Origin: TPA_inf: Saccharomyces
Lineage: Eukaryota
DNA: 64,000 nucleotides
Assembly: GCA_000146045.2 (NCBI GenBank)
Contig: BK006942.2
Location: forward strand, 160,001-224,000
Direction of reading: 5' to 3'
Shown here piece by piece: positions 23,431-50,747 of this stretch (positions are counted from its first letter, which is position 1; each line of letters opens with the position of its first letter). Made by a program: the position numbers and the translations under genes. The notes under the pieces are model-generated. The model was not told the DNA's origin, made no database searches, and was given only the letters and a program-made list of their open reading frames with translations.

Positions 23431-23435
23431 AAAAA
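23431..23435 (-). terminator. Pol III terminator (T5 on the - strand) for tI(AAU)
   Basis: aaaaa on the + strand lies immediately 3' of the - strand tRNA. Confidence 0.6.
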
Positions 23436-23439
23436 TAAG

Positions 23440-23513
23440 TGGTCTCTAGCGGGATCGAACCGCTGATCCCCGCGTTATTAGCACGGTGCCTTAACCAACT
23501 GGGCCAAGAGACC
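23440..23513 (-). tRNA. tI(AAU): tRNA-Ile, anticodon AAU, 74 nt
   Basis: This is the reverse complement of GGTCTCTTGGCCCAGTTGGTTAAGGCACCGTGCTAATAACGCGGGGATCAGCGGTTCGATCCCGCTAGAGACCA. It is identical to the + strand copy at 50665-50738. Confidence 0.95.
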
Positions 23514-23936
23514 AGGAATTTGTTGAAGTATTTCATGTAAATTTAATATTAGTACTGATAGAGATTTCCGATATATATGATCGCTCTCAATTATTTTATA
23601 TCAAGTAAATGTCAATGTCGTTAGTTTGCACTAGCTGTTACTATTTATTCTTAGTAAAGGTTTTTAAAAAAAACTGTAATTATAACCAGGCAGGCGTATG
23701 CAGAGCGAAGGTCTTGGAAAAAGAAAAATATAGAACAGTACATTTAGGAAACGCTAAAAAAGTCACCAAGCAGGCAGGTCACAGGCTCCACTTGAACATA
23801 AGTTAGTTCGCTAATACAGGTTGAATTTCCATTGTGGGATAGTTTATTATCTTCAGCGAAAAAAATCTTTTTTGATTGAAGTGTTGATCAAGATTATTTG
23901 TAACCTCCTATCTTTAGTTGAACTGATCCAAAAACA

Positions 23937-45634: not shown

Positions 45635-46507
45635 ATGAGCTTTATGGATCAAATCCCAGGAGGAGGAAATTATCCAAAACTCCCAGTAGAATGCCTTCCT
45701 AACTTCCCGATCCAACCATCTTTGACCTTCAGAGGTAGAAATGACTCGCATAAACTGAAAAACTTTATCTCCGAAATAATGCTAAACATGTCTATGATAT
45801 CTTGGCCGAATGATGCCAGTCGTATTGTGTACTGCAGAAGACATTTATTAAACCCCGCTGCTCAGTGGGCTAATGATTTTGTACAAGAACAAGGTATACT
45901 TGAAATAACATTCGACACATTCATACAAGGATTATATCAACATTTCTATAAGCCACCAGATATCAATAAAATCTTTAATGCAATCACGCAACTTTCCGAA
46001 GCTAAACTTGGTATTGAGCGTCTCAACCAACGATTCAGAAAGATTTGGGACAGAATGCCACCAGACTTCATGACCGAAAAAGCTGCCATAATGACATATA
46101 CTAGGCTATTGACAAAGGAAACCTATAATATTGTCAGAATGCACAAACCAGAGACATTAAAAGACGCCATGGAAGAGGCTTACCAGACAACCGCACTAAC
46201 TGAAAGATTCTTCCCAGGATTCGAACTTGATGCTGATGGAGACACTATCATCGGTGCCACAACCCACTTACAAGAAGAATACGACTCTGACTATGATTCA
46301 GAAGATAATCTGACCCAGAATAGATACGTCCACACCGTAAGGACAAGAAGATCTTACAATAAACCAATGTCAAATCATCGAAACAGGAGAAATAACAACG
46401 CATCCAGAGAAGAATGTATAAAAAATCGGCTATGCTTCTATTGTAAGAAAGAGGGACATCGCCTGAACGAATGTAGAGCACGTAAGGCGAGTTCTAACCG
46501 ATCTTGA
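45635..46507 (+). CDS. GAG3: Ty3 Gag3 (capsid, spacer, nucleocapsid with a CCHC knuckle), 290 aa
   Basis: The ORF frame opens at a TTG (45584). The ATG at 45635 (MSFMDQIPGGGNYPKL) gives 290 aa. CFYCKKEGHRLNEC is a zinc knuckle. The stop codon is at 46505-46507. Confidence 0.93.
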   Translation: MSFMDQIPGGGNYPKLPVECLPNFPIQPSLTFRGRNDSHKLKNFISEIMLNMSMISWPNDASRIVYCRRHLLNPAAQWANDFVQEQGILEITFDTFIQGLYQHFYKPPDINKIFNAITQLSEAKLGIERLNQRFRKIWDRMPPDFMTEKAAIMTYTRLLTKETYNIVRMHKPETLKDAMEEAYQTTALTERFFPGFELDADGDTIIGATTHLQEEYDSDYDSEDNLTQNRYVHTVRTRRSYNKPMSNHRNRRNNNASREECIKNRLCFYCKKEGHRLNECRARKASSNRS

Positions 46508-49500
46508 ACTCGAATCAAAAGACCAACAAACTCTTTTTATCAAAACCTTACCAATTGTACACTATATCGCCATCCCCGAGATGGACAATACCGCCGAAAA
46601 AACCATAAAAATACAAAACACGAAAGTAAAAACCCTGTTTGACAGTGGATCACCCACGTCATTTATCCGAAGAGATATTGTAGAACTTCTCAAATACGAA
46701 ATCTACGAGACCCCTCCACTCCGTTTTAGAGGATTCGTAGCCACCAAATCCGCCGTTACATCCGAAGCAGTCACCATTGACCTCAAAATCAATGACCTGC
46801 AGATAACTTTAGCCGCGTACATACTGGATAACATGGACTACCAATTGTTAATTGGAAATCCAATCTTACGCCGCTACCCGAAAATCCTGCACACAGTACT
46901 GAATACCAGAGAGAGCCCCGACTCCTTAAAGCCCAAGACTTATCGCTCCGAAACCGTTAATAACGTTAGAACCTACTCCGCTGGTAATCGTGGTAACCCC
47001 AGAAACATAAAACTGTCTTTTGCCCCCACCATTCTCGAAGCAACTGACCCGAAATCCGCTGGTAATCGTGGTAACCCCAGAAACACAAAACTGTCTCTTG
47101 CCCCCACCATTCTCGAAGCAACTGACCCGAAATCCGCTGGTAATCGTGGTGACTCCAGAACCAAAACCCTGTCTCTTGCAACCACTACTCCTGCAGCAAT
47201 TGACCCGCTTACGACCCTTGATAACCCAGGTAGTACTCAAAGTACATTTGCGCAATTCCCGATACCTGAAGAAGCGAGCATCCTAGAAGAGGATGGAAAA
47301 TACTCCAACGTTGTCTCAACCATTCAGAGTGTAGAACCTAATGCTACTGATCACAGCAATAAGGACACCTTTTGCACTTTGCCAGTTTGGTTACAACAGA
47401 AGTATAGAGAGATCATACGTAATGATCTCCCACCAAGACCTGCCGACATTAACAACATCCCCGTAAAACATGATATTGAAATTAAACCTGGCGCAAGACT
47501 ACCTCGACTACAGCCATACCATGTTACAGAAAAGAATGAACAAGAAATCAACAAAATAGTTCAAAAACTGCTCGATAACAAGTTCATTGTTCCCTCAAAG
47601 TCGCCCTGCAGCTCCCCTGTAGTCCTCGTCCCGAAGAAAGACGGTACCTTCCGACTCTGCGTCGATTACCGCACCCTGAACAAAGCTACCATCTCCGACC
47701 CATTCCCATTACCCAGAATCGACAACCTATTGAGCCGTATTGGAAATGCCCAGATATTTACCACGCTAGATTTGCATAGTGGTTACCACCAGATCCCGAT
47801 GGAACCCAAAGACCGCTACAAAACCGCCTTTGTCACCCCATCCGGTAAGTATGAATATACCGTCATGCCATTTGGCTTAGTCAATGCACCTAGTACATTC
47901 GCAAGATACATGGCTGATACATTTAGAGACCTGAGATTCGTCAATGTTTACCTTGATGATATATTAATCTTCTCCGAATCTCCAGAAGAACATTGGAAAC
48001 ATTTAGACACGGTACTAGAAAGATTAAAGAACGAGAACCTCATTGTTAAGAAGAAAAAATGTAAATTTGCATCTGAAGAAACTGAGTTTTTAGGCTATAG
48101 TATTGGAATCCAGAAAATAGCTCCACTACAGCACAAATGTGCAGCAATCCGAGACTTTCCGACGCCTAAAACAGTAAAACAAGCACAGAGATTTTTAGGA
48201 ATGATTAATTACTACAGACGATTCATTCCGAATTGCTCCAAGATTGCACAGCCAATCCAACTGTTTATTTGTGACAAAAGTCAATGGACAGAAAAACAAG
48301 ACAAGGCAATTGAGAAACTAAAAGCCGCCTTGTGTAACTCCCCCGTCCTAGTACCATTCAACAACAAAGCAAACTACCGACTTACAACAGACGCCTCAAA
48401 AGACGGCATTGGTGCTGTTCTAGAAGAAGTCGACAACAAGAACAAACTTGTTGGTGTCGTCGGTTACTTCTCTAAATCCTTAGAGAGTGCCCAGAAAAAC
48501 TATCCTGCTGGCGAATTAGAACTACTTGGAATTATCAAAGCACTCCACCACTTCCGATATATGCTTCACGGAAAGCATTTCACGTTAAGAACAGACCACA
48601 TTAGTTTGTTATCATTACAAAACAAGAACGAACCCGCACGACGCGTGCAACGCTGGTTAGATGACCTAGCCACATATGACTTCACCTTAGAATACTTAGC
48701 TGGACCCAAGAACGTTGTCGCAGATGCCATATCCCGTGCCATATATACTATAACCCCCGAAACATCCCGACCTATCGACACAGAAAGCTGGAAATCTTAC
48801 TACAAATCAGACCCATTATGTAGTGCTGTCTTAATTCATATGAAAGAATTGACACAACACAACGTCACACCTGAAGATATGTCAGCCTTCCGTAGTTACC
48901 AGAAGAAACTCGAACTATCAGAGACCTTCCGAAAGAATTATTCCCTAGAAGACGAAATGATCTATTACCAAGACCGACTAGTAGTACCAATAAAACAACA
49001 GAACGCAGTTATGAGACTGTATCATGACCATACCTTATTTGGAGGACATTTCGGTGTAACAGTGACCCTTGCGAAAATCAGCCCAATTTACTATTGGCCG
49101 AAACTACAACATTCGATCATACAGTACATCAGGACCTGCGTACAATGTCAACTAATAAAATCACACCGTCCACGCTTACATGGACTATTGCAACCACTCC
49201 CCATAGCAGAAGGAAGATGGCTTGATATATCAATGGATTTTGTGACAGGATTACCCCCAACATCAAATAACTTGAATATGATCCTCGTCGTAGTTGATCG
49301 TTTCTCGAAACGCGCTCACTTCATAGCTACAAGGAAAACTTTAGACGCAACACAACTAATAGATTTACTCTTTCGATACATTTTTTCATATCATGGTTTT
49401 CCCAGGACAATAACCAGTGATAGAGATGTCCGTATGACCGCCGACAAATACCAAGAACTCACGAAAAGACTAGGAATAAAATCGACAATGTCTTCCGCGA

Positions 49501-50132
49501 ACCACCCCCAAACAGATGGACAATCCGAACGAACGATACAGACATTAAACAGGTTACTAAGAGCCTATGTTTCAACCAATATTCAGAATTGGCATGTATA
49601 TTTACCACAAATCGAATTTGTTTACAACTCTACACCTACTAGAACACTTGGAAAATCACCATTTGAAATTGATTTAGGATATTTACCGAATACCCCTGCT
49701 ATTAAGTCAGATGACGAAGTCAACGCAAGAAGTTTTACTGCCGTAGAACTTGCCAAACACCTCAAAGCCCTTACCATCCAAACGAAGGAACAGCTAGAAC
49801 ACGCTCAAATCGAAATGGAAACTAATAACAATCAAAGACGTAAACCCTTATTGTTAAACATAGGAGATCACGTATTAGTGCATAGAGATGCATACTTCAA
49901 GAAAGGTGCTTATATGAAAGTACAACAAATATACGTCGGACCATTTCGAGTTGTTAAGAAAATAAACGATAACGCCTACGAACTAGATTTAAACTCTCAC
50001 AAGAAAAAGCACAGAGTTATTAATGTACAATTCCTGAAAAGTTTGTATACCGTCCAGACGCGTACCCAAAGAATAAACCAATCAGCTCCACTGAGAGAAT
50101 TAAGAGAGCACACGAAGTTACTGCACTCATAG
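45635..50132 (+). CDS. POL3: Ty3 Gag3-Pol3 polyprotein produced by a +1 frameshift (45635-46489 joined to 46491-50132; about 1498 aa). Pol3 comprises protease, reverse transcriptase, RNase H and integrase.
   Basis: The POL3 frame is open from the frameshift site to 50132. Motifs present: protease LFDSGSPTSFI, reverse transcriptase YLDDILIFS, integrase HHCC (H..H...C..C) and DDE. The order PR-RT-RH-IN is gypsy-type. Confidence 0.92.
46487..46493 (+). promoter_or_regulatory. Ty3 programmed +1 ribosomal frameshift heptamer GCG-AGU-U
   Basis: GCGAGTT lies 12 nt upstream of the GAG3 stop. Skipping A46490 reads GTT into the POL3 frame. Confidence 0.9.
46980..47213 (+). repeat. In-frame 78-bp tandem repeat (2 full copies and one diverged) within POL3, between protease and reverse transcriptase
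   Basis: Units at 46980-47057, 47058-47135 and a third from 47136 (diverged). They encode SAGNRGNPRN(I/T)KLS(F/L)APTILEATDPK, repeated. Confidence 0.9.
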
Positions 50133-50293
50133 GAATAGATACTACACACAAAACTTACTTATGTCACATGCAAGACGTAGACCCAACACTTTCAGTAGAA
50201 TACTCAGAAGCTGAATTTTGCCAAATTCCCGAAAGAACACGAAGATCAATATTAGCCAACTTTAGACAACTCTACGAAACACAAGACAACCCT

Positions 50294-50307
50294 GAGAGAG
50301 AGGAAGA
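50294..50307 (+). promoter_or_regulatory. Ty3 polypurine tract
   Basis: GAGAGAGAGGAAGA abuts the 3' LTR. Confidence 0.7.
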
Positions 50308-50647
50308 TGTTGTATCTCAAAATGAGATATGTCAGTATGACAATACGTCACCCTGAACGTTCATAAAACACATATGAAACAACCTTATAACAAAACGAAC
50401 AACATGAGACAAAACCCGACCTTCCCTAGCTGAACTACCCAAAGTATAAATGCCTGAACAATTAGTTTAGATCCGAGATTCCGCGCTTCCACCACTTAGT
50501 ATGATTCATATTTTATATAATATATAAGATAAGTAACATTCCGTGAATTAATCTGATAAACTGTTTTGACAACTGGTTACTTCCCTAAGACTGTTTATAT
50601 TAGGATTGTCAAGACACTCCGGTATTACTCGAGCCCGTAATACAACA
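50308..50647 (+). repeat. Ty3 3' sigma LTR (340 bp), identical by eye to the 5' LTR
   Basis: Base-for-base match to 45220-45559 on manual comparison. Confidence 0.97.
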
Positions 50648-50664
50648 GAACATATGAAATATCT

Positions 50665-50738
50665 GGTCTCTTGGCCCAGTTGGTTAAGGCACCGTGCTAA
50701 TAACGCGGGGATCAGCGGTTCGATCCCGCTAGAGACCA
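50665..50738 (+). tRNA. tI(AAU): tRNA-Ile, anticodon AAU, 74 nt (the Ty3 integration target)
   Basis: GGTCTCTTGGCCCAGTTGGTTAAGGCACCGTGCTAATAACGCGGGGATCAGCGGTTCGATCCCGCTAGAGACCA. A T7 terminator lies at 50741-50747. Confidence 0.95.
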
Positions 50739-50740
50739 TA

Positions 50741-50747
50741 TTTTTTT
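50741..50747 (+). terminator. Pol III terminator (T7) for tI(AAU)
   Basis: A run of 7 T lies 3 nt after the tRNA. Confidence 0.8.

Follow-up and report, generated by a model that had tools for sequence, protein, structure and literature searches.

The spacer between protease (PR) and reverse transcriptase (RT) of the retrotransposon Ty3 is labelled J, for junction domain, in the legend to Fig. 1 of PMC11381356. In Ty3-1 / YGRWTy3-1 (Ty3-G), the closest described system, J occupies the same PR-RT position and has the same flanks as the segment studied here, from which it differs in holding two tandem units (units 1 and 3 of our copy) and in belonging to an element with an intact integrase C-terminus; with residues 128-246 assumed as J, the two-unit form has a computed size of 93 aa and 9.9 kDa, and the three-unit form of our copy 119 aa and 12.6 kDa. 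The J of Ty3-1 is described as a '10-kDa' domain, which presumably corresponds to the computed two-unit mass, and Claypool and co-workers reportedly found in 2001 that this 10-kDa domain is dispensable for Ty3 transposition. Duplications of the PTAP region in HIV-1 Gag p6 are likewise short, in frame, polymorphic among isolates and located in a disordered segment, and they are generally ascribed to RT template switching or slippage. Unlike the Ty3 unit, for which we know of no motif function, the p6 duplications include a functional motif, the ESCRT-binding late domain. Established knowledge covers the element, its J domain and the difference in length from the reference Ty3-G polyprotein, and what we add is small, namely a population-level polymorphism between two and three units and a chimeric unit.

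We characterized the element that hosts the repeat in the window, by which we mean the whole stretch of 64,000 nucleotides that was analysed, and found the following features:

45220-50647, forward strand: full-length Ty3 retrotransposon hosting the repeat, 5,428 bp, with identical LTRs at its ends and flanked by a GAACA duplication
45220-45559, forward strand: 5' LTR (sigma), TGTTG...ACA, 340 bp
45635-46507, forward strand: GAG3 (290 aa), Pfam Ty3_capsid, E = 7.8e-79
46487-46493, forward strand: GCGAGTT heptamer in the GAG3/POL3 overlap, its sole forward-strand occurrence in the window
46581-46910, forward strand: protease fold, ORF residues 1-110, with the DSG active site at residues 21-23; Pfam Peptidase_A2B, E = 1.7e-95; pLDDT ~90
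47319-48746, forward strand: RT/RNase H, ORF residues 247-722; alignment to PDB 4ol8, Pfam RVT_1 and RT_RNaseH
50308-50647, forward strand: 3' LTR (sigma)
50664-50739, forward strand: tRNA-Ile(AAT), Pol III target of the insertion; ARAGORN, Rfam tRNA at 58 bits

The host is Ty3 of S. cerevisiae (Metaviridae), as every defining feature of Ty3 that we tested was present. The two LTRs are identical at 340/340 positions, they enclose an internal domain of about 4.7 kb, the 5-bp target duplication GAACA stands on either side, and the tRNA-Ile(AAT) begins 16 bp past the end of the 3' LTR. This spacing agrees with the habit of Ty3 to insert around the transcription start of Pol III genes, between a few and about 20 bp ahead of a tRNA gene. 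POL3 lies in the +1 frame after GAG3 and contains, in order, the Pfam domains Peptidase_A2B, RVT_1, RT_RNaseH, Integrase_H2C2, rve and SH3_Tf2-1. We take the GCGAGTT heptamer to be the Ty3 +1 programmed frameshift site, and the POL3 frame near it reads RVLTDLELESKDQQT..., matching the Ty3-G fusion protein P0135. The element shares 99.98% identity with L002, a contig of S. cerevisiae, and 99.1-99.4% with further Ty3 copies, and a deposited S. cerevisiae protein (KAJ1537331.1) is identical to its Pol3 ORF. Its protein is near-identical to PDB 7q5b ('Transposon Ty3-G Gag-Pol polyprotein'), the differences being one 26-aa unit and a small number of substitutions. The assignment to Ty3 POL3 made in an initial annotation of this DNA, drawn from the letters and their open reading frames, was therefore upheld by the LTRs, the target duplication, the adjacent tRNA gene, the capsid, PR, RT, RNase H and integrase domains and the match to 7q5b.

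Within POL3 we resolved the repeat into three units:

46977-47054, forward strand: unit 1, A-type, SAGNRGNPRNIKLSFAPTILEATDPK
47055-47132, forward strand: unit 2, A-type, SAGNRGNPRNTKLSLAPTILEATDPK; missing from Ty3-G / Ty3-1 (26-aa offset against 7q5b; 78-bp gap against VL3 and VIN7)
47133-47210, forward strand: unit 3, C-type, diverged, SAGNRGDSRTKTLSLATTTPAAIDPL; its orthologue in the VIN7 element is unit 2

Tandem Repeats Finder reported an array at 46977-47207 (period 78, 3.0 copies, 89% matches, no indels, score 350), and a repeat search returned three in-register copies at 46977-47054, 47055-47132 (97%) and 47133-47210 (77%). The identity at a lag of 78 was 0.878 over the array versus 0.281 ± 0.038 (maximum 0.378) in the remaining element, so that the repeat lies far beyond chance. 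Because the distance in nucleotides between the ATG of the ORF at 46581 and the first base of the array is divisible by 3, the three units are in the POL3 frame, where they form residues 133-210 with 26 aa per unit. The in-frame 78-bp tandem repeat described in the initial annotation is thus real in both period and reading frame, but its estimate of about 2.5 copies gives way to three full units; its coordinates (46980-47213) cover the same array, one codon 3' of its own S-first phase (46977-47210). Its description of two near-identical units followed by a diverged one also holds, given that units 1 and 2 differ at 2/78 nt (97% identity) and unit 3 differs from them at 17-18/78 nt (77-78% identity). 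The first 18 nt, TCCGCTGGTAATCGTGGT, are identical in every unit. Between units 1 and 3 we counted 12 non-synonymous and 2 synonymous codon changes. The 78-mers flanking the array showed 24-36% identity, and no further degenerate (fourth) unit was detected in them.

The units lie in a segment whose position and predicted structure both indicate a spacer:

46962-47318, forward strand: J (junction) region, ORF residues ~128-246; N-terminal boundary inferred, C-terminal boundary equal to the RT start

With the PR fold extending to about residue 110 and the alignment of the crystallised Ty3 RT (4ol8) beginning at about residue 247, the repeats (133-210) occupy most of the PR-RT spacer, between the protease and reverse-transcriptase regions as had been proposed. 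The N-terminal boundary of J (~residue 128) was assumed, in line with the mass calculation. We modelled residues 1-400 of the ORF in AlphaFold2, using an alignment of 30 homologues, and obtained pLDDT values of ~90 for residues 1-110 and 25-41 (<50) for residues 112-260, with confidence recovering in RT and secondary structure absent over residues 109-229. The composition of the repeat is also linker-like, with 49% P/G/S/T/N and 1% aromatic residues, compared with 27-28% and 8-9%, respectively, in PR, RT and IN segments. The disorder prediction that the initial annotation had proposed as a check, with pLDDT of 25-41 and no secondary structure at the repeats, and the J label in the legend of PMC11381356 both agree with its idea of a flexible junction or linker. 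These results suggest that the repeat makes up the core of the J spacer, predicted by the model to be intrinsically disordered and probably weakly constrained, between folded PR and RT.

We further compared Ty3 alleles drawn from proteins that share its 90% cluster or belong to neighbouring ones (~15 alleles), and they fell into two-unit and three-unit forms, confirming the expectation that copy number would differ between Ty3 copies or strains:

Two units, NIKLSF + DSRTKT: P0135 (deposited as TY3B, CAA97115), P0129, P0136, P0140 and P0143
Two units, NTQLSL + DPRTKT: VL3 P0001 and P0141
Two units, the first chimeric (C-type 5' half, A-type 3' half), DSRTKTLSL/APTILEATDPK + DS: P0122
Three units, in three sequence combinations: window/L002, P0125, P0128, metagenome contig L050 and P0134

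Alignment to 7q5b broke into two stretches with registers 26 residues apart, which means that the window copy has exactly one unit more than Ty3-G, and, in the DNA alignment, elements with two units show a clean gap of 78 bp. The repeat therefore accounts for the 26-aa (78-bp) length gap between the window copy and the reference Ty3-G polyprotein. In a set of seven Pol3 proteins from S. cerevisiae, 10/78 columns were variable in the repeat versus 13/991 elsewhere (Fisher P = 1.3e-6), half of the variable repeat columns stemming from the chimeric unit. In the proteins compared, the J repeat is thus the most variable part of Pol3, being both the fastest to evolve and variable in length.

The Pol3 of P0125, which combines three units with an intact integrase, is encoded at three loci of GCA_001634645.1. 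These three-unit elements adjoin tRNA-Val, tRNA-Pro and tRNA-Asp, and all have an intact POL3; aligned over 5,430 bp, two of them have 0 mismatches, whereas the remaining one shares 99.4% identity with the window element. Identical copies at different tRNA genes indicate that a three-unit element has transposed recently, and its transposition with an intact POL3 argues that the additional unit is tolerated. Three-unit arrays also occur in L002, L050 and L099-L103, which are independent assemblies. A metagenome scan with GCTGGTAATCGTGGTRAC found 93 stretches; among the 84 matches listed, L050 is the only Ty3 (with three units), and the remaining stretches among the matches listed have one match each, presumably by chance.

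Comparison with more distant elements bears on the age of the two unit types. Other Saccharomycetaceae Ty3-like elements share the order PR-linker-RT, and the units of the VIN7 and Torulaspora elements resemble the A and C types. In the VIN7 hybrid (contig L003), the related Ty3 element, at 80% nucleotide identity, has two units, of which unit 1 is nearest the S. cerevisiae A-type (85-88% vs 73%) and unit 2 is nearest the C-type (82-83% vs 74-78%). As the VIN7 units pair with the A and C types, the A/C duplication is older than that split, and since the A/C architecture has been kept across lineages with ~20% nucleotide divergence, the segment may not be wholly neutral. In the Torulaspora globosa elements (P0003/P0009), the first unit is A-like and the second is degenerate, and Tandem Repeats Finder found no array in their repeat region. 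In Arxiozyma and other yeast Ty3-like elements (P0004-P0007) the PR-RT linkers are short and free of repeats, and a third unit was absent from the VIN7, Torulaspora globosa and P0004-P0007 elements alike. A phmmer search of the J segment against 1.84 billion representative proteins gave credible matches limited to the Saccharomyces cluster and Torulaspora. Two unrelated tandem-repeat proteins also appeared in the phmmer results (E = 4e-4), and we regarded them as chance matches inflated by the repeat.

On this sampling, the duplication from A to A-A' is confined to Ty3 of S. cerevisiae. Units 1 and 2 differ at 2-4/78 nt across S. cerevisiae Ty3 and whole elements differ by ~0.6-1.1%, so the A-A' duplication is no younger than the copies sampled. 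For the ~15 alleles, either three units were ancestral in S. cerevisiae and were lost recurrently, or two were ancestral and a unit was gained recurrently.

We propose that the array is a disordered repeat of the J spacer that arose by an old A/C duplication, later became A-A'-C, and varies between two and three units through misaligned exchange, its length being tolerated; we put the probability of this reading at roughly 0.88. An early duplication of the 78-bp (26-aa) unit would have produced the A-type and C-type units common to related Ty3 lineages, and a second duplication of the A-type within S. cerevisiae would have yielded the A-A'-C order seen in the window, after which the array would have fluctuated between two and three units among copies. 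The pattern of alleles points to out-of-register homologous recombination or RT template switching as the likely driver. The 18 nt identical at the unit starts could mediate such misaligned exchange, and the chimeric unit of P0122 is the type of product that it would be expected to leave. At the protein level, the array is predicted to be disordered, it varies, and elements of both forms are active, which suggests a passive flexible spacer that would tolerate change in both length and sequence. We also considered unit 2 as a chimera with a C-type 5' part and an A-type 3' part from a single unequal crossover, and rejected this because unit 2 lacks the C-type sites 19, 22 and 29; a crossover within the common 18-nt 5' block may have given rise to it.

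The units might instead be functional modules, carrying a motif for a host or Ty3 factor or acting as a spacer that times the release of PR and RT, in which case copy number would be selected and would modulate transposition. Consistent with such a role, the motif SxGNRG...L(S/P)(L/F)A(P/T)T...(A/E)(A/T/I)D and the two-unit layout are kept in VIN7 and, in a degenerate state, in Torulaspora, and the recent burst in one genome involves three-unit elements. However, the repeat tops the variability of the Pol3 protein, the differences from unit to unit are overwhelmingly non-synonymous, and the P0004-P0007 elements do without the repeat and have much shorter PR-RT linkers. Moreover, the repeat is predicted to be fully disordered, two-unit elements (Ty3-1, whose activity is taken from the literature) and three-unit elements are both transposition-competent, and deletion of J is reportedly tolerated, all of which makes selection on copy number improbable. 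Slightly less probable still, in our estimation, is that the array serves as both a recorder and a tuner of Ty3 replication, with units gained, lost or made chimeric, like that of P0122, by inter-RNA template switching in virus-like particles and their number quantitatively affecting the kinetics of Gag3-Pol3 processing or the rate of transposition. If it did, three-unit elements would perhaps be more active, and the three-copy burst in GCA_001634645.1 might hint at this.

The same stretch also contains a reading frame on the opposite strand:

46926-47255, reverse strand: antisense 'ORF' of 109 codons, with TTG as start codon when the bacterial table is used; by-product rather than gene

This frame is one of several behind the suggestion that the repeat acts as nucleic acid, whether the Ty3 genomic RNA holds a structured or cis-acting element there or the DNA an antisense or overlapping gene, given that two of the antisense frames and an alternative sense frame have almost no stops and yield ORFs of 88-109 codons. 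Stop-free frames are, however, the mechanical outcome of repeating a stop-free unit: the ORF at 46926-47255 exists because the unit is free of stops in two antisense frames, in agreement with the earlier view that it comes from the repeat. No Met codon occurs in its translation, hence no ATG start, and Pfam returned a single match to it, below the cut-off. Furthermore, the array folds no better than shuffled sequences (MFE -36.5 vs -40.4 ± 3.8 kcal/mol, z = +1.04), and the tRNA was the only Rfam match over the element region; we thus regard a role as nucleic acid as very improbable. An even smaller chance attaches to the third unit being an assembly or sequencing artefact, or a mutation private to a single locus. 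Tandem repeats are a classic cause of collapse and expansion errors in short-read assemblies, yet at least seven independent records have the three-unit structure, among them a metagenome contig and, for three loci, chromosome-level contigs, and their unit sequences are not all alike, which excludes an assembly artefact. The preferred reading remains that of a length-tolerant, disordered spacer repeat shaped by successive duplications and misaligned exchange.

The importance of the array beyond annotation is slight. It is a handy marker for separating Ty3 lineages and for spotting recombination between copies, its units may be miscounted in short-read assemblies, and the antisense ORFs of the region should stay unannotated as genes.

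Finally, we examined the 3' part of POL3, in which the window copy carries a lesion:

50037-50040, forward strand: A4 run (active copies need A5), a 1-nt deletion that frameshifts the integrase C-terminus; ORF stop at 50132

Past the A4 run, frame 0 reads ...VQFLKSLYTVQ...*, and the C-terminus of intact copies, KFVYRPDAYPKNKP..., is readable in the +2 frame. In the published element YILWTy3-1, a chromodomain-region frameshift abolishes activity, which can be regained once the frame is restored (PMC8632968); because the A4-run frameshift matches this defect, we read the window copy as YILWTy3-1. Judged by its sequence, the copy is most probably the defective S288C-type element of chromosome IX (YILWTy3-1 / Ty3-2). 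The disabling lesion is the 1-nt integrase frameshift and not the additional J unit. The flanking genes encode Sds3-, DFP- and AIR1-like proteins, together with the tRNA-Ile. These flanks would fit the SDS3/CAB2...AIR1 neighbourhood on chromosome IX, and YGRWTy3-1 is ~5,350 bp long, compared with the 5,428 bp measured for the window element.

We found that the integrase C-terminus of the Ty3 element in the window is thrown out of frame at the following site.

50037-50040, + strand: A4 run

Intact Ty3 copies require A5 at this position, and the intact integrase C-terminal sequence (KFVYRPDAYPKNKP...) remains readable past window 50037-50040 in the +2 frame. This agrees with the inactivating frameshift published for YILWTy3-1, the defective chromosome IX copy of S288C (PMC8632968). 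Despite this defect, the two LTRs (window 45220-45559 and 50308-50647) are identical at 340/340 positions, which suggests that the insertion is young or that the frameshift was gained at or after insertion. A short way upstream of the 3' LTR lies a 10-bp tandem repeat in two copies (TTAGACAACT; window 50252-50271), which is kept in another Ty3 copy (L001:3717-3736) and is probably trivial.

The window holds two tRNA-Ile(AAT) genes, which share 95.6% identity over 91 bp and are inverted relative to each other; Ty3 is present only at the second.

23431-23521, - strand: first tRNA-Ile(AAT) region, without Ty3
50657-50745, + strand: second tRNA-Ile(AAT) region, the Ty3 carrier

Three full-length copies with three J units and intact POL3 were detected in GCA_001634645.1 (L099, L100, and L101), adjoining tRNA-Val(AAC), tRNA-Pro(AGG), and tRNA-Asp(GTC), and two of the three share 100% identity along 5,430 bp. 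The strain has undergone a recent Ty3 burst. Within the junction itself, J unit 1 of a metagenome-derived Pol3 from ENA (P0122; 1232 aa) is chimeric, with a C-type 5' half (DSRTKTLSL) and an A-type 3' half (APTILEATDPK); this composition points to gene conversion or unequal recombination between units. The J units were also weakly matched, with a library-wide E of 4e-4 and 43% identity across 58 aa, by P0144 and P0145 (L098:845-1435, GCA_006243085.1). These proteins are unrelated and contain separate tandem repeats of ~26-27 aa (PGKRGNTRGVLVEPTALERSDPRSRKI in P0145), and the match is probably due to repeat-inflated chance.

A Ty3 relative with 80% nucleotide identity was found on a contig of the VIN7 hybrid (L003:4529-7587), near ferrochelatase, MBOAT, and Med4 genes. 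Its match to the window element is confined to the first ~1.9 kb of the latter, and it is split into two gene calls, one of 327 aa (Gag-PR) and one of 528 aa (PR-J-RT); this copy is degenerate or truncated. A Ty3-like PR-J fragment (P0003) was also observed in Torulaspora globosa CP059247.1 (L004:2808-6936), ~15-28 kb from a chromosome end, with a MATalpha_HMGbox gene ~2.6 kb from the fragment and likewise close to that end.
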